A stretch of DNA of 63,699 nucleotides, the filler included, from Aduncisulcus paluster (lineage: Eukaryota), in NCBI GenBank assembly GCA_024181965.1. It is 22 parts of 22 records of this genome, joined end to end, with 100 filler letters (N's around TTAATTAATTAA, not from the genome) between each part and the next. Parts side by side here need not be neighbours in the genome. Positions count along the whole stretch, not along the records: positions 43,771 to 45,386 come from BQXS01005691.1; 21 more parts are not named here. One strand, 5' to 3'. Positions 3,742-48,274 of the stretch are shown piece after piece. The notes beneath the pieces were generated by a model. It was not told where the DNA came from. It did not search any database and worked only from the letters and a program-made list of their open reading frames with translations. Both the position numbers and the translations under genes were made by a program. Every line of letters starts with the position of its first letter. Position 1 is the stretch's first letter.

Positions 3742-6023
3742 ATGTCTTCACCTAAACCCTTTACTCTTCCTGATCTCGAGAGCTTGAAAGAAAAAATCAT
3801 TGAAATAGGCTCTCAATATGCAGTATCAGAGCTCTATCAAATATCTTCTCACCGGTTGAAGGCTACATTTGATGAATTCTCAGCCCCTTCAGTTCCATCC
3901 TCTACAATCCTTTCAAATCTGGATTTTTTTGTTCTTTGTTCCGAATGTTTATCCCTATTTGTTAGACATCAACGTGTCGAACTCAATTATTGGGATAAAA
4001 CGACAGAAGTCGTGAATATTACTCTGGACATTTCTTCAATTCGCAATCTCATTGACTCCTTTCTCTCTCCAATGATCAAGATACTATCTATTCTGAGAAG
4101 TGAGATTCGAAAAACAACCGACGAAGGGGATACTTTGGCGTCTACAGGAAAAAAAAGATCAACAGGCTCGAAAAGATCTCTTGGTGGGGAAAAGAAAGGA
4201 AAGAAACCATCTTCTAGCACTCAGAAGGAAGAAGATAAAGTTTTATCTATCACAACCTCTTTATTTCAAATTATTTCTATATCTCTGCTTTATGTTTCCT
4301 CACTTCGACAGACCATTTTCCCTCAAATCTCAGGCCTTCTATCCGAATTGTTTTCCTTGGGGGTTTTACATAAATTTGACAGTGTATTAGTTGAGAATAT
4401 CCTCGAAATGTGTAAGAATTTCTCGGTTGCCAAAGAGAACACCACTAAGGATGCCCTTTTGACCATTATTTCTCCTAGTATTCACGATTGGATTAAAAAA
4501 TATAAGACCAAAAAGTCCTATCTTTTATGGATGACCATTCTGAAGAATATTTCATTCGATTCAGCTAATGCTACTCCCAATAAGGATCGTTGCACAAAAC
4601 TCTGGTTTACTTTCCATTTGATTTTGGATGTGGTCAAGGGATCTTCCTCTGTGAATTACGATTGGCTGAAGACAAGTTTGATATTCTTTGCTAATCTTTG
4701 TTGTATTCCTGACCAAGGTGTTGCTATTTTTGATTCTATCAAGACTAATCTCCTTGATCAGTGGCATGGGATCATGATTATGAAGTACCTAGAGGAACAT
4801 GAATGGGCGGGAATTGGAACCTGGGCCAATATTGTCTCTATTTTTGCAACAATTCCTTCTCTTCTTTCCCAAGTTTCCCCAAAATATGATGTATTGATGA
4901 ATCAGTGTCAGTATTATGCCTGTCAAGAGTATCACTCGAGATATATTGCTGCCTGCCACTCAACTCACACGAAATGGTATGATTTGTATGATTCTGTTGC
5001 CAAAGCCCTCTCTCCCGCCCTTATTACTCAAATGTATGAAGACAATCGAGATGATATTCTTGGTATTTTTAGCAAAATAATATCAAAGAGTGACATTACG
5101 GAGCATAAGGAAGAGATTAGATTATGCTGCAGGTGTTTGTCTGTATTTATTGCCAAATTACCTCAGCAACTAGTTATTATTGACACATTTCTTGATCATT
5201 TGGAAAGGATTGATGAAATTCAAGAAGGAATCGTTGATCGCGCTTTCTGTAATCTTTGTTACGAGTATAGTTCAAGCAATATTCATTCTTTGGAAGATTC
5301 TTTTCTTCGCAAGATATCTCCAATGTTTCAACGTATTTTGAAAAGAGGATCCAAGGAGAAATTACCCGAATGCATTGCTAGAGAATTATTATTTACTCTC
5401 TTTTATGTTTCCGCTTCTACCAAAGATTCCATCCTCTCTTCTCTTTTCGCTCTCATCTCTCCTTATTGCAAATATTGGTTCGATGTTAATGATTATAGTG
5501 AATGTTACGGAATATGGATGATGCTCCTATCAAATATTACAGCTTCCAAGGATTCCTCATTATGTTCTGAAGTTTGGCCTCTTTTTTACCCAGTGTTTGA
5601 GCTTATTGAGGGCAAATTTGATGGAATTCGTTTTACTATGGATAACCATGAATATGTATTGGAATTCTTGTCTAATTTATGCTATGATACAAAGCATGCA
5701 TGTATTATCTATCGAAAGGTTAGCCTTCTCATTGGGAAGTGGTTTAAACTTCTGAAGAGAGAGAAATTTGATCGAGGAATTACATTTTGGGCGAAATTCA
5801 TTACGAAATTATCCTCCATTCCTTCTATTCTATTATTCCATATATATCAAAATATAAAGAGAACATGAAATGGATTGCTGCATACTTTACACCCAGTGCA
5901 AACAGTCTTTTTGATTTATTTGTTTCCAATATCGAAAAGGTTCCAATAGAAGAGATTGAGGATGGGGAAGAGGAAGATGAGGAAGATGAGGAAGATGAGG
6001 AAGAAGAGGAAGATTTATATTAA
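3742..6023 (+). CDS. Alpha-helical (ARM/HEAT-like) repeat protein with acidic tail, frameshifted near the C-terminus
   Basis: 708-aa ORF with two homologous internal blocks (WMTILKNIS..FFANLC..TWA..IPS and WMMLLSNIT..FLSNLC..FWA..IPS); continues in the ORF ending 6023 if the 5-bp duplication at 5825-5834 is removed. Confidence 0.6.
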
Positions 6024-6177
6024 CAAATTAATTAATATTCACAATCAACAAACCGTTTTGTCGATGTCAATCATTGATCTCGGCTTTCATATTTTTTATT
6101 ACCGGCTGTGGCCGATAACAACCGTACAAATTCGTTTTTTCTTTTGTATTTTGTTGCAATTACGGTCATTATATTAA

Positions 6178-7544
6178 ATGAAACCCAATTTCTCTTTGAT
6201 TTGTGCGATTCTTTATATTGTTGCCGCTTTGAGGTTTGGTGCTTGCTCAAACGAGTCAAACGATGGAAACGTTGACTATGAAGCTGGAGCAAGGCTAATA
6301 ATCCGAAAAAGCATGTTTGATTATTATCTTCCCCGGGTTGCCGACAATTTTGAATATACTTTCCCTTCGTTTGGAAATATTCTTTACACCGATATTGGTC
6401 ATATTATTGTCAATTATGACGGCTCCAATCCCGTTGCAGTTAAAACAAATCCAGTGACATCCTTTGAAAAACCCAATATTGTTGATTTTGACTTTCAAGA
6501 TTTGGCATTTTCAATCTCAACTCAATATCAATATGAGAACGACCCAGATATTAATGGAATTTTGGATATCTCTATAACGAGAGGGGAAAGTGACATTTCG
6601 ATTTTTCTTGAACAAGGTGACGTTTATTATGATGATCCAGAGCAATTTTATATTGATTACGATAAAATTATTGTGGGTGCTTATGAGTATGAACTTGATT
6701 GGCACAATACTGACTTAAATAATTGGTGTGATTGGAATACTCAACATGTATCAACCTGGTTGGCCATTCTTATTAATCATTGGTCTATAGATATATCTAT
6801 GGACATTCTTAATAACTTCCTCGACTCCTTACCCGCTACCCACATTCCTTTCGATGCATATGTTGACCTTGATGATGGGCTGGTGCTTTCTGATCCCATT
6901 TTAGTTACAAGTGAGGACAAATCCTATATCTCAATCGGTTCTAAAATGCGATTTGTCCCTTCAAATTCTGCAGCTCGTACCGAGGATCATACAGTTGGTC
7001 TTCCAATTGCTCCACTTGATGATCTCTCCACCTCCGATGCTTTTCTCCACATTGCCATTGACAGTTCTGTTCCTACTTCCTTTTTAACAGCTCACAACGA
7101 CTCAGGCTTCATCTCTTCCATCCTGATCACTGAAGATGAGATATCACCCGATTTAGCCATTCAACTCACTGTGGGATCTCTTGGAACCCTCATGTTCCCG
7201 AATCTCGATGACTTTTACTCCCCCTCCCGAAACCTCTTCCTCTCCTTTTCTGTCCCTGAGGATGAAGAGGCCACTGATCTCTACGCCGGTTTCAACTCTG
7301 ATGGAATGTCTTTCTCGTTGACATTTGACATGCGAATTGATGTTGCTCAGAGTGGTACCTATGACACATTGGCCGAGGAGATTGCCGTTGTTCGGTTCGA
7401 TATTTCTGGCTCTGGGGAGATGACTGCCACTGATACCCCGTCTCTTGATGGTATTATTATTGCTGGTAATATTGCGTCCATTGATGTTACCAATCCTTCC
7501 ATTGAGTTTTTGAAAGATGATCTTGACGTTTCTACATACTTCTT
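6178..7544 (+). CDS. Secreted BPI/LBP (TULIP) lipid-binding protein, 3' partial
   Basis: Signal peptide; GARLIIRKSMFDY resembles the BPI N-domain G..vRIt..gLdY; LHIAIDSSVPTSFLTAHNDSG..LITEDEI resembles the BPI C-domain. Confidence 0.6.
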
Positions 7545-9183: not shown

Positions 9184-10564
9184 GACCCAGTAAATCCAAA
9201 AACATGACATTTATACAAATCAAGGATCGTTTCAGCGGTGGTAACACTCACCCCGGCCAAATGAGGCAAGAAATCGTTACCAATGAAGAGGCAAATAACA
9301 ACAAAATCGTCAATCACACGTTCGAAATCGAATTCGGGGATAGAAGCCAAGACAGAAGCTTTATGATCTTCCCAATCTTTCTCAAATCTATTTTTAAACT
9401 CAACAACATCAATAGGGTCCATAAATTCCTCGGGTTCTTCCTCTCCTTCTTCTTCTTTCTCTCCAAATTCTGAAGGCAAGGAGATAATATCAGAAGACAA
9501 GGAACTAACATCCTTACTACTATCCTCATGTTCCTTTTCTTCTTTCTTCTTCAGGGCATCTTTAATGGCAGTATTATAAGCATTATTCCACATACGAGTC
9601 CCTTTGTAAGTTTTAATGGCTCGTTTCCCATGTTGGAAGGCAAACAAGAACTCTTCGTGCATATATTGTCTGAGAACTCCGATATCAAGGACCTGCATGT
9701 TGATATCCCATGGTTGTAGGTGTACATCAAGGCCATTGCGTTCAAATGGTGGCTTGAAATCAACTTCACGCCGGAATATTCCGATTCTGGGTTCATGGGT
9801 TGATAAAGCAAGGAATATAAGATCGGCATCAAGACCATGGAAGGCATGAGATTCACTTCCAAGATATGATGGATCTTTACGCTGTCTTTCACGAATATAA
9901 TCGAGGAATTTATGCTCCCCTTCACCGGGAACATCCACACCAGAGAGAATCAGGGTAATATCCCTCCAGGCTGGGCAGAACGTCTTACGATTAGCCAAAA
10001 ACATTGTCAAAATACGAGTGAATCGTATCATAAAGGGAGTTCCGGGAGAAATAGAGGTTCTTTCAAAATGAGGAATGTCACCGCGGTACAATGTTTCAAG
10101 CTCAGCTTTCCAATCAGCAAGATGGGATTCACCGCATATTTCAACAGGATTAAGCTCTGGCATCCTCGAAGCGATTGCACCAGCCACTCTTCGCTCACGT
10201 TGTTGATTCATTTTAGTTCTTGGAGCAACACCATCAACTGCAATAAATAATAACTTCTTTGGACGCACTACATCAAATAAATGAGTGATATATGCTAATA
10301 CTCGTTCAACAATATCTTTCTCGGATAAACACATTTTACATTTGTTTTCTCGGCTAGCGCTTTCATGAATAATTGCGTTACAATCAATATATAGATTGTC
10401 TAATGGAAATTTTAAATGTTATTAATAAATCTAAAAATCAGAGGAAGTGAATAGGCTAAAAAAAAAGATCACGTACCGTAAAGGCCTGCATCAGTGGTGA
10501 CGACATCTCTTAGAACAAGAGGATATCGTTCACTGACGAATCTGGCAAATTTAGGAACTCCCAT
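9184..10564 (-). CDS. XRN1: 5'-3' exoribonuclease XRN1, two exons (10564-10477, 10399-9184), 3' partial
   Basis: Spliced N-terminus MGVPKFARFVSERYP..YDNLYIDCNAIIH; AVDGVAPRTKMNQQRERR, PGEGEHK, HGLDADLI, GNDFLPH. Confidence 0.92.
10400..10476 (-). other. 77-nt GT-AG spliceosomal intron in XRN1
   Basis: GTACGT...CCATTAG; removal restores the conserved DNLYID motif in frame. Confidence 0.9.
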
Positions 10565-10760: not shown

Positions 10761-11393
10761 ATGGAATTAAAAGATGATAAAAAAATCACTCCTGAAGTTG
10801 TTAGGGAGAATGCTTTTATTCCTGATGATGAATTAGCAGAATTAGTTGGCTTGCTCCACAAAGTTGCCCATTTCGATATAACAAGAAAAGATTTGAAGAA
10901 AGAACATTCTCATTCTGTCAAAAAAGAGAAACAAGCTCAAAAAAGTACATATATAGGTTTAATTAGAGAAACTTTTTTGGAGAAGTTTTCGAAAAGCCGT
11001 GAATTACAAAACCTACTTGAAATAGAGGAGAAAGAAGTTAAAAACATGTCAGATGAAGAATTAAGGTATATTGTGGCAGATAAAGAGGTCACCAGAAGAC
11101 AACGAATCGAACGTTTGATGCCAAGTAAGATGAAGGAGCGTATTGTAAGTGCCATCATATCAAGTTTTTCAGACCCTGAGTTAATATCAACATCAAAAAT
11201 ATCTTCAATATTTGCTAGTGCTCTTGTGCATGAAGAACAATCCCAACCTCAAAAAATGGAGGAATCTCTTCATCTTGAAAAACCTTCTAAACATTTGGCA
11301 ACGGGACATTCTGTCGATTCATCCATAAAAGCCGGATCTAAACAGCCAAAAGTTGTTGAGGAACTTTTAGATTTTGTTTCGCATGTTAAATGA
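10761..11393 (+). CDS. Hypothetical protein, divergent from XRN1
   Basis: 210-aa charged ORF from ATG 10761; no recognised motif. Confidence 0.55.
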   Translation: MELKDDKKITPEVVRENAFIPDDELAELVGLLHKVAHFDITRKDLKKEHSHSVKKEKQAQKSTYIGLIRETFLEKFSKSRELQNLLEIEEKEVKNMSDEELRYIVADKEVTRRQRIERLMPSKMKERIVSAIISSFSDPELISTSKISSIFASALVHEEQSQPQKMEESLHLEKPSKHLATGHSVDSSIKAGSKQPKVVEELLDFVSHVK

Positions 11394-11627
11394 TGATGAG
11401 GAAAGAATCGATATTTCTCATTGAGGTGAAATCAATCATATTCGGCGATCTAACGCTGCATTTTTAAATATTTTAAGTTTATTATATTTTTATGATATAA
11501 TAAACAAAGATTTTTTGTTTGTTATATTTAATATTTCTCAGATAACATGAAATATCATTCGTCCCTCATGGGCTGTTCATCGATTTCTTGCTTCTTTTGT
11601 TCCCAAATCATATTTTTGTAAACACTG

Positions 11628-12560
11628 ATGCCATTTGAAGAGCAAGATTTAACAAAGGATGAGGAAGATGATGAATTTTATCCTATATCTCAGGCACATG
11701 CTGAAACATATCAAATTGAATTGTTTCCTCCCCATCAGGTGATACCAGACATCCATATCCCTGTTGATCAGGATCCTCATACTCCTTTTCATGCGATTCA
11801 TGAGTTTGATTGCCCCCCAGTCTATTGGAAACTCACATATAAAAATACCTGTGAAAAACTCCAAAAGGGCATTTTGAGGCGAAAATCGACGGTTGAGCCA
11901 TGTTCTTGTTTGACAAGTTTGCACCAGGGTGATTCATATATATTATTCTTTTGTCTATTGCACCGTAAATTTATTCCTTGGCCCCGACACTCAGTAACTC
12001 CCGCCCTGTTATTCAAGCGAGGATATTGTGGCGATTGCTTCCAAAAGGGGGTTAAATTCTGGGGAAACAATAGTCGCCATGTCCCAAGGTTTAAATATGA
12101 TGGTCTATTCAAATCTATCTTTACTAATGTGTGGAAAGGATTTAGTTTCGAACAAACTTTTCGAAAGGTGTTTTTGAGTTCTTCTTCTTCTTCTGATCGG
12201 GGTGTTAGATACCCAGAGATTGAGACTGAAATTCTTGAATGTGCCCTTCAAGAAATGTTAATAGCCAAGGGAAAAGATCCCATTACCAAAGAAATTGTCC
12301 CAATGTTCAAGTTAGATGTGCCCGATATCATTGATGACTCATATAGGAGAGATGTTTGCTTTATGTTCCTATTAGCAGTGGGAAATTGCGGTAACGCCAA
12401 ATTTAAACAATTACAAGAAACCCATTGTCCTTCTTTTAAGGGAATTAAGAAAGGGTTGTATGTAATGTATTTCAGCGGAGATGATGAATTTAGAACGCGT
12501 ATTTATGACGATATTGTCAGGGCAGGTGGATATGATCCTTTGGATCTTTTTGAAGAGTGA
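11628..12560 (+). CDS. Hypothetical protein with Cys/His clusters
   Basis: 310-aa ORF; CSC, CLLH and CGDC could bind metal. Confidence 0.6.
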   Translation: MPFEEQDLTKDEEDDEFYPISQAHAETYQIELFPPHQVIPDIHIPVDQDPHTPFHAIHEFDCPPVYWKLTYKNTCEKLQKGILRRKSTVEPCSCLTSLHQGDSYILFFCLLHRKFIPWPRHSVTPALLFKRGYCGDCFQKGVKFWGNNSRHVPRFKYDGLFKSIFTNVWKGFSFEQTFRKVFLSSSSSSDRGVRYPEIETEILECALQEMLIAKGKDPITKEIVPMFKLDVPDIIDDSYRRDVCFMFLLAVGNCGNAKFKQLQETHCPSFKGIKKGLYVMYFSGDDEFRTRIYDDIVRAGGYDPLDLFEE

Positions 12561-37341: not shown

Positions 37342-38774
37342 TACAAGCAACATAGAGAACATCAGGGGAGAAGATCCTTGGTTGAACTGCACAAAAGAGA
37401 TCCAGGAAAGGATTCTGTTCTTTGACTTTGTTACGGGTCTGGGTAATGACACAGTGACGTTTGTGTGGGAATGAAGCAAAGAGAGGTGGTATGAAGACAG
37501 AAGCTTCGGATTCATACTCAGGATTCATGACATAGAGCAAGATATTAAAGGCCGTAGTCTCATCTTGTGGAACTACTTCTGACTGAGCAATTGAGAGAGC
37601 TGAGGTGAGAGGAACCTGGGACATACCATCAACAGATGACATGGGGAATCCACCACCCATGCGAGGATCATTGAAATCATGTTCAATGGCAAATTCATCT
37701 TCGTACATCATGCCGCCACCACCAAAATGAGAGCCCATGCCACCAGGCATAGGACTGTGGCCAGCTTTAGTCATTGAGGTCTTCAAATACGACTGTGGAA
37801 TAAAATAATTGAATTCTTCACATATATGAAAATGTGAAACATCGCGTAAGTCGAGCTGGTTGACAGCAACAACACATCCAACGACATCTTTGCCTCCAGG
37901 ACCAGTTCCATCAACCTCAGCAACAAGAACAGTGATATTTTCATCTCTTTCATGAGCATGGACTAACTGGGCCACACCATATTTCCTAACTCCTTCCAAT
38001 TGCTCAGGAGCATACATTTCAAACAATGGCAAAATATCATCGTTATCTTCTACTTTTGCAGCCCTAATTGTAACCTTTGGAAGACATACATCACGGTAAA
38101 TGCAATATAATTCAAATGAATTCTTCTTATTGATAGGGGCATGCGTTGCAGATAATTTGGCGCTTCCACATGGCTTACAAAGCAATTCAAATGATGGATT
38201 AATCTCATGTCTTCCTGGAGGAAGCAATAATAATATGTTATCGATGTGAGGCATAGTGCTAAAGGCTGTACGCAATAATTCAACAGAATCTGGTTCATGG
38301 ATCGGCGAAGTGACGAAATAATTTACAAAGACACTATTTCTTTCATTTATAAGTTCTTCTGGATAGTATTTTGCAATCCATTCACCCCAATTATTGGGAT
38401 CAGGAGGCCCAGCTGCTTCTTTATCTAAAATCATTTTTTGATCTGATTGAGGCTGGAATATTGGAGTGTTATCGGATAAAAATAATGCGGCAACGACATT
38501 ATCAGCACCATCAACCAAACCTAAAGAGAGTAAACAATTCTGTCTAAGAAAAAAGAGAAAAAATATCATAATAAAAGGTAAACATCAGCAAATTATTATT
38601 ATAAACAAATAGATCTCAATGAATAAATGTATTATATTGCAAAAACTTGTCTACATACCGGAGAAACTCAATAGAAAGATGAGAGCCTTCAAAAGCAGCT
38701 AAAGAATGTTCTTTGATCAATTTTTCTAAACTTTCTATATGTTTTTCATCTATTCGTGTGATATCAAAGTCCAT
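37342..38774 (-). CDS. CFAP61: Cilia/flagella-associated protein 61 N-terminal region, two exons (38774-38659, 38543-37342), 3' partial
   Basis: IRAAKVEDNDDILPLF, LLRTAFSTMPHID, AFNILLY..FPHKRHCVIT; splicing gives FLR|QNCLLSLG. Confidence 0.75.
38544..38658 (-). other. 115-nt GT-AG intron in CFAP61
   Basis: GTATGT donor, GCTGAT branch-like motif, pyrimidine tract, TTAG acceptor; frame restored. Confidence 0.85.
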
Positions 38775-40010
38775 GACTGAACTTTTTGCAACAAAGAAAG
38801 GCGTAACGAGCAAGTGATACGAATTCGATTCTTTAAGCTATATGCGCAGCTAATACTTCCAATTATTGAAATTAACAAATAATTTTATTAATGATTATTA
38901 TCCCGATTTCTTTCGATATAACACGGATCAGATGATATGTTAAACTATCGTTTATTGAGCTTGAACCACAATTACAGTATCTCATTATAATTTATTCGGT
39001 GGAAACTTTTCGATACATTTTGACTAATTAAAATGTCTTCTGAGTTATAACGATAATTGGCCCTGGAGATTAATTTCTTTTGTTTTGGTCGGTACTATTA
39101 AGATCAAAATATTTTATAACTATTAATGGATTATTATATATGATATTAAAAAATATAAAACAGTACCTATTGATATAAGGCCTTATTTCGATGAGAATGA
39201 TTTAGTTCTCTGTGTGATCTATCTGTCACAGATTATTTCGTCACTTAAACGATATATACATTTATATTTTTTCAAAGGTGCTATTTTTGATACATTTTTA
39301 TGTGCTGAAGTGAGCTATGATAGATTGAAGAAATTTTGTCAGGAGAATTCGACCTTTGTACTTGTGCAAAATATGTTATTCATGACAAGCATCCCATCAT
39401 TATGGGGTGAAGTGAAACTATATTGTTGGAAGTGTAATTGCTCTATATCCTACACGAATACAGCTCAATCATTTACTTCAAAAATCATTGAAGAATCCCA
39501 TTCTCATCGGCATTACTATCATCATGTGGAGCTATTGAAGTATATAGATAGTATTTAAAAAGCTCAAATGTGCCCTTCTCAGTTTTATTCAAGAACTTCT
39601 TGAGTTTGAAACTCCATTCTGAACCTATCACGTTCGTTTTGCATACTTGCATGTTTTGGAAATTATCATGACAAAAACAACCATTTTTACACTCATTTAT
39701 TGATATTTTATCATTTAATCGGAGAAATAGATTCCTCAATCAATAATGAAAAATGACATTTCGGTTCCTCGTTGTTCCCTTCATTCTATTTCCACTTTCT
39801 AATAATTTTTGATTTTATTTTAATATTTTAATTCATAATTTATGTTTAAATTTAAGTTTATTCCCTTATTTCCTTTCTTAACGAACTTTGGACTATTTCA
39901 CACTTCGACTAAATTACTCTTTCTGACAACGGAAGTGCACTTTAGCTCTAGGTTATGGTATCTTTTTTACAATGTTTTCTTGACAATCATTTGTTAATAA
40001 TTACAAAACA

Positions 40011-40555
40011 ATGAAACTTTTTACTATTGTTGTTGCTATATTAATGGCAATTGCTTTCTGTCTTGATAAGCAGGCCGTTGTTGATATGATCAACTCTAAT
40101 CCTGACTCCAAGTGGACTGCCAAGGTCTACCCTCAATTTGAGAGCAGGACTCGTGAAGACTGGCGTAAGATTCTTCTTGATGACATTGAGGTTATTGGTC
40201 TTCCTCAAGTTCAACACGTTGATTGTGAAGTTCCCACTGCTTACGATGCTCGTTCCACCTACCCCGACTGTACTGCCCTTAACACCATCCGTGACCAGGG
40301 TCAGTGTGGTTCCTGCTGGGCCCATGGTGCCAACGAGGCTCTTTCTGACCGTTTCTGCATTTCTTCTGGAGGTGACATCAACGTTACTCTTTCCCCCGAG
40401 TACTCTGTGTCCTGTGACACTGGTAACGACGGATGTGATGGAGGTTACCTTGACGTGGCTTGGGACTTCTTCAAGACCACCGGAACTGTCCTTGACGAGT
40501 GTTTCCCCTACCCTGAGGAGACCTACCTTCTCGGAATTGTCCCTGCCTGTCCCAC
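40011..40555 (+). CDS. Cathepsin B-like cysteine protease (C1A), 3' partial
   Basis: Signal peptide, propeptide, RDQGQCGSCWA, SDRFCI, GCDGG. Confidence 0.95.
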
Positions 40556-40654: not shown

Positions 40655-40913
40655 NCCTGCAAATGCTATGACTACAATTTATACTGAAGATTCAAATGCG
40701 ATTAGAAAAATTCTAAAAGAGAAATATGATTTAAATATTGCAGGTGGACAAGATCACTTAAAAGGTAAAATATTTAGAGTAAATCATATGGGACTTGTTG
40801 CTGATTATGAAGCTTCATGGGCTGTTAATGCAGTTGAGAAAGCTTTGGATGATTTAGGTATTCGTTCTTTTGATGGAACAGCGAATAGAGTATTCATGGA
40901 AATAAACAGTTAG
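40655..40913 (+). CDS. Class V aminotransferase (serine-pyruvate/alanine-glyoxylate type) C-terminus
   Basis: IAGGQDHLKGKIFRVNHMG. Confidence 0.88.
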
Positions 40914-40915
40914 TT

Positions 40916-41867
40916 ATGATTTTTGAACATGAAATCCCAACAGGAAGTAGACTCTACTTTGGTAAAATTGCAAAATTAAAAAGAACATTAGAAGATACTT
41001 CAAGTGTTTTTTTAGAAGAGAATGGATTTGAGGAGATTATCACTCCAAATTTTTCATATTCTNNNNNNNNNNNNNNNNNNNNNNNNNNNNNNNNNNNNNN
41101 NNNNNNNNNNNNNNNNNNNNNNNNNNNNNNNNNNNNNNNNNNNNNNNNNNNNNNNNNNNNNNNNNNNNNNNNNNNNNNNNNNNNNNNNNNNNNNNGCTCT
41201 TATTACTTTAACTGATGAAGTAAATAATAGTTTAGCACTTCGAGCAGATAGTACACTAGATGTTGTAAGAATTATTTCGAAACGATTAGGAAGAGCAACA
41301 ATACATAAAAAATGGTTTTATATTCAACCTGTATTTACTTATCCTGCAAATGAAACATACCAAATAGGTGTTGAGTGGATAGGTCATCATTGTGTAAGTG
41401 AAATCATTAATTTAAATTGTCAATTACTTGAAAAAATAGAAATTGAAACTTTAGTTCAAATAGCAAATATTAATATTCCTATGATAATCTCAAAAGAATA
41501 TGATATTGATATTGAACTTTTTAAAAATGGTGAGATTGGTGCATTATTCGAATTGAATTTTGAATGGTTGACAAAACTTATAAGTGTAAAAAATGCAGAT
41601 GAGTTAGAGGCAATACTTGATATACTACCAGATTGTCTTCATGCAGAGTGCAAAAAATTAATCAATATAGCAAATAATGTAAAATATCACAATGTAAATA
41701 TTTCTCCTATTTATTATAGTGCGATGAAATATTATGATGATATATATTATAGAGTTATTAAAGACCACTTAACAATTGCAAAGGGTGGTGGATATAAAAG
41801 TGATGGAATTAATTCACTTGGATTTGCATTATATACAGATAATTTATTAAAAGTAATTGAAGGATAA
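40916..41867 (+). CDS. hisZ: ATP phosphoribosyltransferase regulatory subunit (gapped)
   Basis: MIFEHEIPTG, LRADSTLDV, YQIGVE, GGGY..GFALYTD; upstream of purA. Confidence 0.85.
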
Positions 41868-43367
<1,500 letters not shown>

Positions 43368-43380
43368 GGAAATCATAATT

Positions 43381-43670
43381 ATGAAACTAAAAAAACAACA
43401 TAGCCCTTATATTGCAAGAAAAATAACGAAAGATATTGTTAATTCAACTTTTATTGAGGTACGAAAAGAAAAATCATTTATCACAGCAGAATGTGAAAGA
43501 ATTTTAAATGACGATATCCAAAAAGAGATTAACTTAGATGATGCAGTTGATGAACTACTTGAAAAACAAGAAGATGAAATCGAATTTTATAAAGCTGATT
43601 ACAGACAACTTTTTTGGATGACAAAAAAAAGAATGGCAAATGATTTTGGAGTGAATTTAAATTTTGAAGA
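43381..43670 (+). CDS. DUF507-family protein (3' partial)
   Basis: HSPYIARKI..LFWMTKKRMA; follows purA as in Campylobacterota. Confidence 0.7.
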
Positions 43671-43770: not shown

Positions 43771-44964
43771 CTGGCGGCTATGGTTATGTCTGATAAGCTC
43801 CGTAAAGTGCATTATGAAGAGCTGAAACTGGACATTAACACAGTCGATACGGACTATGACAACATGTGCGGTCAGACTTACATAACAAGAGTAGAAGAAG
43901 TAAGACCTGTAAAAGTGGCGATGGGGGTCTCTGAATTGGAATTTCAAGAGGTTTGGCAGTCTGTTTTCAATCATCCTATTGTTGAGGAAAATCCAAAGCT
44001 GAAAAATGTAGGCATTCTTATATTTGATAATGTTGAAGCACAGGACTTGGCGGGTGTTTTCGAGGTTCTCGGCGCAGCGAGGATGAAATCGAATGCAAAT
44101 AAGCCTCAGTTTAATGTCTTTACAGTGGCGAAAAGCCTTGATCCAATAAAGTCGACGGCAGGACCGCCGGTTCCGGGTTCCAAGGAAANNNNNNNNNNNN
44201 NNNNNNNNNNNNNNNNNNNNNNNNNNNNNNNNNNNNNNNNNNNNNNNNNNAGTCCAAGTATATGACATCGGGCGGCGTACACTGCGCCATAGCCCAGGCT
44301 GTGCATATAGTGGAACTTGTTCAGGGTCTGGAAGCGGCTCAGGCTCTTTGTAAAGACGTTCTTGAGTATACGATTCCAAGAGGCCGTTACAGCATTCCAC
44401 CTGAGTTTCCACAGCCGCGCCACATGGACCCAAGAGATTTCGTTCTTGGTTTTTCACACATCAATGTTATTATGGCAGACCTGAAAATGATGGAAGAAGC
44501 AACAGCCTTCTATAAACGCGTGTTAGGCTTTGAAGAGGCTTGGACTTTATGGCTGCCNNNNNNNNNNNNNNNNNNNNNNNNNNNNNNNNNNNNNNNNNNN
44601 NNNNNNNNNNNNNNNNNNNNNNNNNNNNNNNNNNNNNNNNNNNNNNNNNNNNNNNNNNNNNNNNNNNNNNNNNNNNNNNNNNNNNNNNNNNNNNNNNNNN
44701 NAAATTCACTACCATAAGACGAACGATGTTGGGGGCATTCGCCATGTTGCACTGGAAGTCAATGACGCTGTAGCCGCATACAACTGGCTCAAAAATCAGG
44801 AAGGTGTTCGTATGATCAAACCAGTTCGAGAAGGATATGGGCCGCCTCAAAGACTGACACCGGACCCACAGACATTCTTCTACTGGCTCGATCCATATGG
44901 AGTTCAGTGGGAGTTTGAACAAGGCAGACCGATGGAACGTGTTATTAACGGGATTGTCGGATAG
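43771..44964 (+). CDS. Multidomain protein: nucleoside-hydrolase-like C-terminus + DJ-1/PfpI + VOC/glyoxalase (5' partial, two gaps)
   Basis: LAAMVMSD..GQTYI..PVKVAMGV..F; VGILIFDNVEAQDLAGVFEVL..TSGGV; FSHINV..FYKRVLGF..RHVALEV..DPYGVQWEF. Confidence 0.7.
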
Positions 44965-45486
44965 GCAATACCTAATATTATGAAGCTAGAATAAAAGGGC
45001 AGGACAGCGGNNNNNNNNNNNNNNNNNNNNNNNNNNNNNNNNNNNNNNNNNNNNNNNNNNNNNNNNNNNNNNNGGGTCAAGTGGGTGGTTTAACAAGTCA
45101 AATACGAGCACTATGAGGGCGGAAAACCAGTTACCAAGTGCGAAAGAATACGTGAATTCGACATGAGAAGAACAGAAAAAGATAAAATTCAGTAAAAATA
45201 GTTGCAAATAGTGGAGTTTGAAAACCTTTTGATATATAATAAAGTAGATGTGGAGTCTTAAAATGAGCAGAAACCAGTTATTTCAATAGTTTGAAGGAAA
45301 TTTGGACCTGTTGATTTTGACACTGTGCATTTATTGGAAATAATGATAATTTGCGGTAATGAATCGCTTAGAAAAGCTAGATGAAANNNNNNNNNNNNNN
45401 NNNNNNNNNNNNNNNNNNNNNNNNNNNNNNTTAATTAATTAANNNNNNNNNNNNNNNNNNNNNNNNNNNNNNNNNNNNNNNNNNNN

Positions 45487-46648
<1,162 letters not shown>

Positions 46649-46649
<1 letters not shown>

Positions 46650-47914
46650 CAGTCCCGGTACTTTGCGCTCGGAGGTGCGGGCGCGGGCCCCAGCACGCTC
46701 AACCACTTGCGATACAAGGCATTCCAGGTTCCGTCGCGGCGGATGCGCTCCAGGGTGCGATTGACGTAGCGAACCAGATCGGTGTTCTCCAACTTGATGC
46801 CGATCCCGTAGGGCTCGTCGCTCATGTTCGGCCNNNNNNNNNNNNNNNNNNNNNNNNNNNNNNNNNNNNNNNNNNNNNNNNNNNNNNNNNNNNNNNNNNN
46901 NNNNNNNNNNNNNNNNNNNNNNNNNNNNNNNNNNNNNNNNNNNNNNNNNNNNNNNNNNNNNNNNNNNNNNNNNNNNNNNNNNNNNNNNNNNNNNNNNNNN
47001 NNNGACCTGTCGTTGCTGCAGTGCTACAAGGCAATCGGCCCAGGTCACCACCGAGATGATCACCGGGGGCGGTTCGATCTGCGAGAGCCGGTTCAGTGAG
47101 GTGGTGCCCCGTGCGGCGCACACGCGCCTGCCGGAGAGGTCCTGCGCGTTGGTGATACCCGAGTCGCGGGCCGTCAATATCCGTTGGTAGTTCATCAGAT
47201 AGACGGACGAGAAGTTGACCTNNNNNNNNNNNNNNNNNNNNNNNNNNNNNNNNNNNNNNNNNNNNNNNNNNNNNNNNNNNNNNNNNNNNNNNNNNNNNNN
47301 NNNNNNNNNNNNNNNNNNNNNNNNNNNNNNNNNNNNNNNNNNNNNNNNNNNNNNNNNNNNNNNNNNNNNNNNNNNNNNATCAGATAGACGGACGAGAAGT
47401 TGACCTCCTTGCGGCGCTCGCAGGTGATGGTCATGGTCTTCACCACGATGTCGACCGTCGAGTTCTTCAGTGCGGCGATGCGATCCGCGGAGGACAGAAT
47501 CCGGTACTCCACCCGCTCGGGCGTACCGAAGATGTCGCGCGAGACCTCTCCGGCGATATCGACGTCGAACCCGGTCAGCTCGCCGGTGATCGGATCGCGG
47601 AAGCTGAACAGGTTGCTGCCGATGTCCAGCCCGACGACCAGACGTCCACGCTTGCGGATCGCCGCTACCGCCTGGTCGTTGGCGGCCCGGTCGTTGGTGG
47701 GGCGCAGGCTTGCCGTCGGGTCGCATGAGGTGTCGACCTTGTCCAGGAGCGCGCGGTTGGGTTCCTGCTCGGTCATTTCCGCGGGGGTCGGCCGCGGCAC
47801 GGTCAGCTGCGGCAGCGGTGTGGAGTTCTCGGGCGTCGAACATCCGGCCAGCACCGCCGCGGTGAGCGCCAGCGCTCCGAATCGGTGGCCCCAATGCGCC
47901 ATCGCGCTCATCAT
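46649..47914 (-). CDS. glnH: Glutamine/aspartate-binding lipoprotein GlnH (gapped)
   Basis: Lipobox LAGC, GFDVDIA, TMTITCER; between glnX and pknG. Confidence 0.9.
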
Positions 47915-48274
47915 CGGTACTCGCTCAGTCGCGGCCACAGGCCGACCCCTACGCATATCGCGCCACCCACCGAAAGGATCAGCGCGCCCGCGGGTGACAA
48001 CGTCAACGCGCGCTCGGCGTTGAGTATCCCCGACCGCAGCTGGCGGCGGCTGTCCTGGACGGCGTTGCGCAGTGACGCGTCGAGGCTGTCGAAGGCGGGC
48101 GTGGAATCCGATTCGCTGCTGCCGAGAGCCACCTGGGTCGCGGCCTGGTAATTGCCGACACCGATGTACGCGTTGATCCGATCATCGGCCTGCCGCCACC
48201 GGGTGAGTAGCTGCTGCGCCCGCTCCAGGTCCGCGCGGGCGATGGCGTCAGGGTTCGACAGGTATTCGCCTATC
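47911..48274 (-). CDS. glnX: GlnX (Rv0412c-like) membrane protein C-terminus
   Basis: Ends GLWPRLSEYR; glnX-glnH-pknG order. Confidence 0.85.

Follow-up and report, generated by a model that had tools for sequence, protein, structure and literature searches.

A Nucleoside Hydrolase Fused to DJ-1/PfpI and VOC Domains in Diverse Bacteria: Possible Coupling of Nucleoside Salvage to Glutathione-Independent Carbonyl Removal

Why would a nucleoside hydrolase (NH), a DJ-1/PfpI protein, and a VOC metalloenzyme be joined in a single polypeptide chain? The question is raised by a stretch of DNA from the Aduncisulcus paluster assembly GCA_024181965.1, which is 63,699 nucleotides long, filler included, and is referred to here as the window. 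The initial annotation of the window, made from the sequence alone, described such a three-domain fusion and proposed that it either detoxifies reactive carbonyls and salvages damaged nucleosides or tailors a nucleoside or isonitrile metabolite. The three folds are known, and their coupling is undescribed in the literature searched. As the annotation had supposed, no description of an NH joined to DJ-1 and VOC domains was found in that literature, which leaves most subscription journals and supplements outside, and the available part of one paper (PMC4614350) presents NH and glyoxalase as separate genes.

The fusion lies on a single contig of 1616 bp at positions 43771-45386 (G000:C5691), which contains three internal N gaps and is bounded by N44-TTAATTAATTAA-N44 linkers that join unrelated contigs; the DNA on either side belongs to other contigs and differs in base composition. 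This contig carries the 3′ two-thirds of a Fusibacter-like fusion gene. Three stop-free pieces on the + strand, 43771-44187 (139 aa), 44253-44555 (101 aa), and 44704-44961 (86 aa), correspond to residues 273-411, 525-625, and 672-757 of WP_430884011.1, a 757-aa protein of Fusibacter sp. JL216-2, with identities of 88, 85, and 95%, respectively. Both domain junctions fall within these ungapped pieces, just as annotated (Table 1). The N runs in the gene, 62 and 144 letters long, are placeholders, and because of this the assembled pieces stand in different frames. A 15.4-kb contig from an independent run (X2) covers the whole set and fills the two gaps with 336 and 134 letters, which together with the leftover bases amount to 113 and 46 codons, the spacing found in the full-length relative. 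The view of the spanning contig covered the gap lengths and the 30-letter gap edges; read by eye, these edges are in frame and stop-free, and closing the gaps keeps the frame and exposes neither a stop in the edges nor a misjoin. A misjoin or chimera was rejected on the strength of this spanning contig and of isolate genomes, and the fusion itself is, to near certainty, genuine.

Table 1. Features of the fusion gene and its surroundings on the contig, in window coordinates; residue numbers are those of WP_430884011.1.
Feature	Position	Strand	Remark
NH domain, C-terminal part (residues 273-339 of relative)	43771..43971	+	Relatives exceed PF01156 cut-off; first 272 codons lie off the contig
InhA-like DJ-1/PfpI domain, N-terminal part	43999..44187	+	Glu361 codon at 44035-44037
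Asp364 codon (ICH Asp17 position), DJ-1 domain	44044-44046	+	Placed by alignment
Assembly gap	44189..44250	.	True length 336 nt; holds nucleophile Cys470 and TTHH motif in relatives
DJ-1 domain end, LEY motif	44253..44378	+	Codon of family-specific invariant Cys535 at 44283-44285
VOC domain start	44439..44555	+	Predicted metal ligand His593 at 44457-44459
Assembly gap	44558..44701	.	Actually 134 nt long; VOC Glu659 of relatives falls here
VOC domain end	44704..44964	+	His685 at 44743-44745; Glu741 at 44911-44913; stop codon of the fusion gene at 44962-44964
Downstream non-coding stretch	45176..45342	.	90% identity to the stretch of Fusibacter JL216-2 that separates the fusion from a murA-like gene

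Taken alone, the window fragments stay below every Pfam and NCBIfam cut-off, and the first piece gives no NH hit. The last Ca-binding Asp of the window copy lies 5′ of the contig start together with the DxDxxxDD motif, which had been proposed as a check and is present in the full-length relatives. The catalytic DJ-1 cysteine does fall in a gap, as first noted, and Cys470 and VOC Glu659 are both known here from the sequences of relatives.

The coding DNA of the fusion is 75-79% identical to that of Fusibacter JL216-2 and the downstream non-coding stretch is 90% identical, from which the source is taken to be a Fusibacter-like bacterium in a mixed assembly; other contigs of the same assembly match the flanks of the JL216-2 locus. 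An origin in the eukaryote that dominates the assembly was rejected as unlikely because of these coding, non-coding, and flank matches. The 5′ part of the gene and a partner phosphatase were not found in the gene's own assembly, which is incomplete. By eye, the window mixes organisms elsewhere as well (40668-43670, 45487-48274, and 37342-40555), with a low-GC contig carrying purA, a contig of 65-69% GC carrying a PknG-like kinase, and contigs whose genes look eukaryotic, among them a cathepsin-B-like ORF at 40011. A sigma-70-like site matching at 11/12 positions lies at 45317-45344, close to where the contig ends, and may serve the next gene; three such sites were found compared to 1.1 in shuffles.

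A search with the first piece returned nine proteins, seven of which are 744-757 aa long and contain PF01156, PF01965, and PF00903, and WP_430884011.1, which the complete Fusibacter sp. JL216-2 genome encodes, belongs to one of the homolog clusters. The order NH-DJ-1-VOC occurs in 39 of the 61 clusters that match the full-length protein (38 full length and one fragment), which together with the spanning contig bears out the annotated architecture. The database label of the protein is 'nucleoside hydrolase' only, and Atlas look-ups give generic VOC and DJ-1 names only. The carriers span several bacterial phyla and include Fusibacter, Clostridia, Psychrilyobacter, Psychromonas, Vibrio, and Pseudomonas as well as bins assigned to Bacteroidales, Desulfobulbus, Nitrospirae, and Aminicenantes, and the three-domain chain is kept from 99% down to ~37-44% identity. 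A window-type VOC match occurs in two of 401 genomes of the Fusibacter order and in two of 401 genomes of a Desulfobacterota sample, and a search of plasmids found no fusion but only two stand-alone DJ-1 matches. No RNA holder of the gene was listed, an absence that says nothing about its expression. The patchy spread suggests lateral transfer or frequent loss. A set of 70 GTDB loci, drawn from the best 80 of 127 stretches, holds at least 11 fusion loci, 30 stand-alone hydrolases of the same subfamily (NH1), and 25 stand-alone VOC genes. A low-sensitivity search found no close stand-alone form of the DJ-1 domain of this family. Longer fusion versions of 778-900 aa (P0063, P0064, P0065, and P0067) form one supported group in both trees described below; P0064 begins with a signal-peptide-like stretch, and the group may be eukaryotic in origin. 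In P0069-P0071, an NH1 hydrolase is joined to an N-terminal PF15711 domain.

Residue conservation was assessed in 35 aligned fusions and is numbered after WP_430884011.1. Mean identity is 74% for the VOC, 58% for the NH, and 54% for the DJ-1 domain, and the catalytic-type residues are near-invariant. All three profiles, PF01156, PF01965, and PF00903, score above cut-off in five full-length relatives. For the NH domain (residues 9-339), the scores are 161-173 bits against a cut-off of 34.2, so that a hydrolase call made from a short fragment has been upheld (167 bits versus 34). The N-terminal Asp cluster consists of D14 and D16, found in 34/35 with one N-truncated row, and of D20 and D21, found in 35/35; E198, N200, and the last Ca-binding Asp, D271, are also present in 35/35. 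The residue preceding the last Asp is His in group I hydrolases, Trp in group II, and Cys in group III, according to an excerpt of PMC8910321. In the fusions it is Phe (F270, 35/35), which sets the domain apart from group I, as does its RihC score of 83-96 bits versus 382. The group II Trp of IAG-NH is absent, although Phe is aromatic too and may work alike, and a regional profile of the NH domain for the group II comparison gives no match to IAG-NH. Group II is further marked by a Trp in the β3-α3 loop and by two extra helices; the fusions have invariant F83, P84, and F87, and residues 85-92 form a helix in the model. The replacement of the general-acid His by Phe makes purine stacking or an activated leaving group likely, and the NH domain is thus likely to favor purine or otherwise activated N-ribosides, as far as its sequence indicates. 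Two stand-alone NH1s nest among the fused NH1s in a quick tree.

The DJ-1 domain comprises residues 349-566 and scores 43-51 bits against PF01965 (cut-off 26.6). Its nucleophile-elbow cysteine, C470, is present in 35/35 fusions, is followed by Ser, and aligns to ICH Cys101, while D364 (34/35) aligns to ICH Asp17; E361, H490, H491, R493, and C535 do not vary. Among solved structures, InhA/ICH come closest (E ~1e-21), and the best NCBIfam scores, below cut-off, are to the sensor domains of the FtrA and GbdR regulators. Among DJ-1 proteins, Asp rather than Glu at this position marks isocyanide hydratases, as stated in the consulted section of PMC12570138. Asp does not seem specific to isonitriles, since an ordinary stand-alone DJ-1/PfpI protein, P0091, has it as well. 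The glyoxalase III (Hsp31/YhbO) signature of Glu and Cys-His is replaced by Asp and Cys-Ser in the window family; the His after Cys is needed by YhbO, and not by DJ-1 or HchA, in the part of PMC13449665 that was available. Deglycation by DJ-1 is itself disputed, being described in the accessible portion of PMC9539984 as apparent only and limited to reversible adducts, with reversible guanine adducts lowered through the removal of free methylglyoxal.

The VOC domain (residues 587-757) is the most conserved of the three and scores 38-47 bits against PF00903 (cut-off 20.6). The initial annotation pointed to likely metal ligands, and four predicted ligands, H593, E659, H685, and E741, are indeed present in 35/35 aligned fusions. 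The curated profiles, however, are far from their cut-offs, with 17-21 bits versus 120 for glyoxalase I (TIGR00068) and 23-27 bits versus 115 for methylmalonyl-CoA epimerase (TIGR03081), the latter being the best curated score. The closest fold to the VOC model is an uncharacterized Bacillus cereus protein, 1SS4 (Z 13.4, rmsd 3.1, 145 aligned). Ile/Val and Tyr occupy the positions at which E. coli glyoxalase I presumably binds glutathione through Arg9 and Asn60, and we take these Arg and Asn residues to lie four residues after the first His and Glu. A four-ligand VOC metal site is linked to enediolate chemistry. A Streptomyces protein with two VOC domains aligns to the fusion VOC with 97.6% probability and 30% identity; we assume that it resembles the ValD/CetB cyclitol epimerases, and a look for valiolone epimerases found nothing in the literature searched. 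The 25 stand-alone VOC loci have no co-directional partner, with convergent SDR-like genes in 7/25. Stand-alone members of the VOC clade (P0093, P0098, P0105, P0108, and P0124) have lipoprotein-like or membrane-anchor N-termini, which suggests that an enzyme of this clade can act outside the cytoplasm. In P0156 and P0174, a sister VOC subfamily is fused to a maltose-acetyltransferase-like hexapeptide domain.

A model of the whole chain (mean pLDDT 79.6, pTM 0.69) shows the linker from NH to DJ-1 as ordered and the one from DJ-1 to VOC as poorly defined. When residues 345-757 were modeled as a pair, the score was 0.80 compared to 0.22 for the best control; this mark is attained by 21 of 30 homodimers of known structure and by none of 23 monomers, contact agreement between runs is ≥82%, and pLDDT is ≥82. 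In the modeled dimer, the strand that carries His593 in one chain pairs with the strand that carries His685 in the other, and the interface includes DJ-1 residues 361-374, 490-491, and 531-535, although resemblance to known VOC and DJ-1 dimer structures may account for the score. The fusion is probably a cytoplasmic, dimeric enzyme of ~757 aa.

The gene neighborhoods, whose examination had been recommended from the start, provide a clue to the pathway. An adjacent, co-directional HAD phosphatase occurs in 7 of 11 fusion loci (at least 11 in the best 80 of 127 stretches). These phosphatases come from two unrelated families, HAD-IB-like in five loci (upstream in two and downstream in three) and AphA-like in two, the latter scoring 160 and 168 bits (cut-off 196). 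A hydrophobic leader is present in 7/7, and five have a lipoprotein-like Cys by eye. Five phosphatase queries, whose families are those the test covered, found no match in the 59 other loci (30 stand-alone NH and 29 VOC-bearing, from the best 80 of 127 stretches), 12 of which are syntenic Pseudomonas loci. Four of the 11 fusion loci from these stretches (the best 80 of 127) have no adjacent phosphatase, one of them lacking upstream DNA and another having 1.1 kb of it. One locus with a phosphatase continues into an RNase T2-family gene. In JL216-2, phosphatase and fusion are 28 bp apart and lie between terminator-like hairpins at 6703-6739 and 10276-10317 of its locus (L002), although such sites are no more numerous than in shuffled sequence. 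Periplasmic phosphatases of the AphA type turn nucleotides into nucleosides, as described in PMC10694654, and the phosphatase neighbor points to nucleotide scavenging as the setting of the NH domain. No nucleoside transporter or downstream catabolic gene recurs in the 11 fusion loci, and no Hsp31-type gene was found near the 70 GTDB loci, both among the best 80 of 127 stretches.

Individual loci have other neighbors. The Psychromonas fusion is followed by a Cache/HD_5 gene, with an ADP-ribosylglycohydrolase gene 1.7 kb upstream (L008:10926-13814, 5461-6282). Two choloylglycine-hydrolase-family genes (L009:6491-7657, 11345-12502) flank the Vibrio penaeicida fusion, near which lie genes that we take, from their sequence, to be YcaO/TfuA-like.

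The hosts differ in their own means of carbonyl removal. JL216-2 has mgsA and two ribokinases, and neither a glyoxalase I over cut-off nor a PF04262 GshA was found in it. Three of the five carrier genomes tested, all gammaproteobacterial, have canonical glyoxalase I and GshA, which makes plain methylglyoxal removal redundant there, and the fifth, a 2.6-Mb bin, has neither. This split fits glutathione independence of the fusion.

A second trio with the same three folds was found in Vibrio. A VOC profile search of 1.84 billion representatives identified P0097, a protein of 732 aa with the order DJ-1, NH, VOC, whose cluster holds Vibrio brasiliensis isolates. A VOC match occurs in 31 of 401 Vibrio-family genomes (30 of the 31 loci were fetched); the 24 strong hits are all in frame with an NH, and the seven weak ones stand alone. 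These 24 comprise 18 NH2-VOC, five DJ-1-NH2-VOC, and one NH-DJ-1-VOC of the window type. The DJ-1 domain of the Vibrio trio is Hsp31-like (4P5P, 1U9C, and the Candida glyoxalase III 4LRU at E 3.7e-24), keeps Glu and Cys-His in 5/5, and has no BLAST similarity to the DJ-1 domain of the window family (E 0.67). NH1 and NH2 are 24% identical and are separated in a quick tree by a very long branch with unfused hydrolases between them. In a second quick tree, the VOC domains fall into one clade, in which each architecture has its own supported group. Both trees have SH-aLRT support only and midpoint roots; together with the differences in DJ-1 and NH, they are read as indicating that the same trio arose twice, from different parts. 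GGDEF genes adjoin NH2-VOC co-directionally in 11 of the 12 fetched loci (of 19 found) and adjoin Hsp31-NH2-VOC in 5/5, giving two cyclase contexts overall.

Hsp31-NH2-VOC lies directly behind a 1680-aa kinase-AAA-GAF-GGDEF gene in 5/5 genomes (L108-L112, L072) and is usually followed, in the Vibrio family, by a small DUF3574 gene, and a Desulfobacterota NH2-VOC (L123) lies just ahead of a gene of the same kinase-AAA-GAF-GGDEF type. A three-gene unit also recurs; its members are a small protein that looks exported and weakly matches cytochrome P460 (E 0.01), a HAMP-GGDEF cyclase, and NH2-VOC (L114-L122, L124, L066, L068, L069, and L071).

Given these findings, we tentatively favor nucleoside salvage coupled to glutathione-independent removal of reactive carbonyls, with a probability of roughly 0.45. 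In this mechanism, the exported-type phosphatase would turn outside nucleotides into nucleosides, from which the Ca-dependent NH domain would release base and ribose. Reactive α-oxo or α-hydroxy carbonyls that accompany this flux would be removed at two sites, the Cys/Asp site of DJ-1 and the His-Glu-His-Glu metal site of VOC. Such carbonyls may be set free by guanosine that was reversibly glycated, or they may arise from the load of ribose, and no glutathione would be needed. Carbonyl chemistry is pointed to by the repeated recruitment of DJ-1, once from the α-oxoaldehyde-hydrating class, together with the four-ligand VOC domain. According to a citation in PMC3146418, E. coli that takes up ribose can show raised methylglyoxal. 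Against carbonyl removal stand the DJ-1 Asp without the His, the VOC scores below the glyoxalase I cut-off, and the hosts that have glyoxalase I; furthermore, 18 of the 24 strong Vibrio-family VOC hits lack DJ-1 and adjoin diguanylate cyclases rather than phosphatases. The first proposal of carbonyl detoxification with salvage is therefore sustained in part: it gains from the neighboring phosphatases and from a separate fusion that uses a glyoxalase III-class DJ-1, and it loses from the isocyanide-hydratase signature of the DJ-1 domain, the low glyoxalase I score, and the disputed deglycase activity of DJ-1. A more specialized form, in which the fusion would be a metabolite-repair machine for damaged nucleosides whose VOC and DJ-1 domains strip or convert carbonyl adducts without glutathione while the NH domain recycles the base, is unlikely.

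Somewhat unlikely, too, is a compact catabolic pathway for one specific modified nucleoside, in which the NH domain would free base and sugar, the DJ-1 domain would hydrate or hydrolyze a nitrile-like, formyl, or acyl C-N group on that base, and the VOC domain would isomerize or epimerize the sugar or a ring-opened product through enediolate chemistry. Such a pathway agrees with the VOC domain being the most conserved and with its fusion to NH in 24/24 strong Vibrio-family hits, which suggests that it acts on the NH product, and likewise with its best curated scores being those of methylmalonyl-CoA epimerase, below cut-off, and with the Streptomyces two-VOC alignment. The Phe before the last Asp in both NH subfamilies and the family-specific invariant H490, H491, R493, and C535 at the modeled dimer interface also agree with it. 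However, one specific step would need two unrelated DJ-1 classes, no downstream catabolic genes recur in the 11 loci from the best 80 of 127 stretches, and stand-alone VOC and NH1 genes have no operon partners in common. Full sets of catalytic-type residues kept in DJ-1 and VOC argue against a role for these domains as sensors or binders that control the hydrolase, or couple nucleoside levels to c-di-GMP-type signaling, without turnover. This sensing role is improbable, even though it would explain the FtrA/GbdR sensor-domain scores (below cut-off), the GGDEF neighbors of NH2-VOC (11/12) and Hsp31-NH2-VOC (5/5), and the Cache/HD_5 gene after one NH-DJ-1-VOC locus; the Vibrio loci are related and thus count as about two events, and an adjacent co-directional GGDEF gene was found in 0/11 NH-DJ-1-VOC loci among the best 80 of 127 stretches. 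Chance joining of unrelated housekeeping or detoxification domains in co-regulated genes, with no metabolic coupling, could account for the stand-alone NH1 (30/70) and VOC (25/70) loci of the best 80 of 127 stretches and for the two stand-alone NH1s nested among fused ones. It is very improbable, given that VOC is joined to NH in two subfamilies that are very distant from each other and that the trio occurs with two DJ-1 classes, that the chain persists from 99% to ~37-44% identity, and that the low-sensitivity search found no close stand-alone DJ-1 of the family. Least credible is the isonitrile role raised in the initial annotation, in which DJ-1 would act as an isocyanide hydratase that detoxifies or tailors an isonitrile glycoside or nucleoside. 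InhA/ICH are the closest solved structures and the Asp17 and Cys101 equivalents are kept, but the convergent Vibrio fusion has an Hsp31-type, non-ICH domain and no isonitrile or natural-product cluster recurs around the gene, and the proposal is strongly disfavored.

If the trio was indeed assembled convergently, it argues strongly, by Rosetta-stone logic, that nucleotide scavenging has a missing step, and it hints at an undescribed clean-up or breakdown reaction there. One protein from a harmless host makes two questions approachable, namely the natural substrates of InhA-like DJ-1 proteins and the existence of a dedicated clean-up of glycated or damaged nucleosides. Should the repair machine prove true, InhA-like DJ-1 proteins would have a natural substrate, a VOC family of many bacteria that is linked to c-di-GMP genes in Vibrio would have its first function, and the need would be strong enough for two assemblies from non-orthologous parts.

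Each part of the fusion resembles a known system and departs from it. The NH domain shares the fold of the IU-NH family (PF01156; RihA/B/C and trypanosomal IAG-NH; Foldseek E 3e-19 to 6BA0), its N-terminal Asp cluster, its last Ca-binding Asp, and a Glu/Asn pair aligned to the AEFN/AEWN motif, but it is only 17-24% identical to solved NHs, has Phe ahead of the last Asp, and bears two further domains. The DJ-1 domain has its best PDB match in InhA/ICH (3NON) and keeps the Asp17 and Cys101 positions, whereas it differs in the Ser after Cys, in TTHH instead of TTHW, in the extra invariant Cys535, in several insertions, and in being fused. With glyoxalase III of the Hsp31/YhbO type (4LRU, HchA, and YhbO) it has in common the superfamily, the nucleophilic Cys, and the Gly-Gly loop, and not the Glu and the His, both of which are present in the DJ-1 domain of the Vibrio trio. 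The VOC domain has the fold of E. coli glyoxalase I (1F9Z; Z 10.4, rmsd 3.8, 126 aligned) and resembles glyoxalase I, methylmalonyl-CoA epimerase, and other VOC metalloenzymes in the four His/Glu ligands and, in the model, the swapped dimer, yet it is far from their curated cut-offs and belongs to a distinct unnamed clade. The nearest counterpart of the whole is the uncharacterized Vibrio brasiliensis family of WP_006881404.1, annotated 'nucleoside hydrolase', which combines the same three folds in one chain and shares the VOC clade with the window family at 47-52% identity, but has the order DJ-1, NH, VOC, another DJ-1 class and NH subfamily, and a position behind a kinase-AAA-GAF-GGDEF gene.
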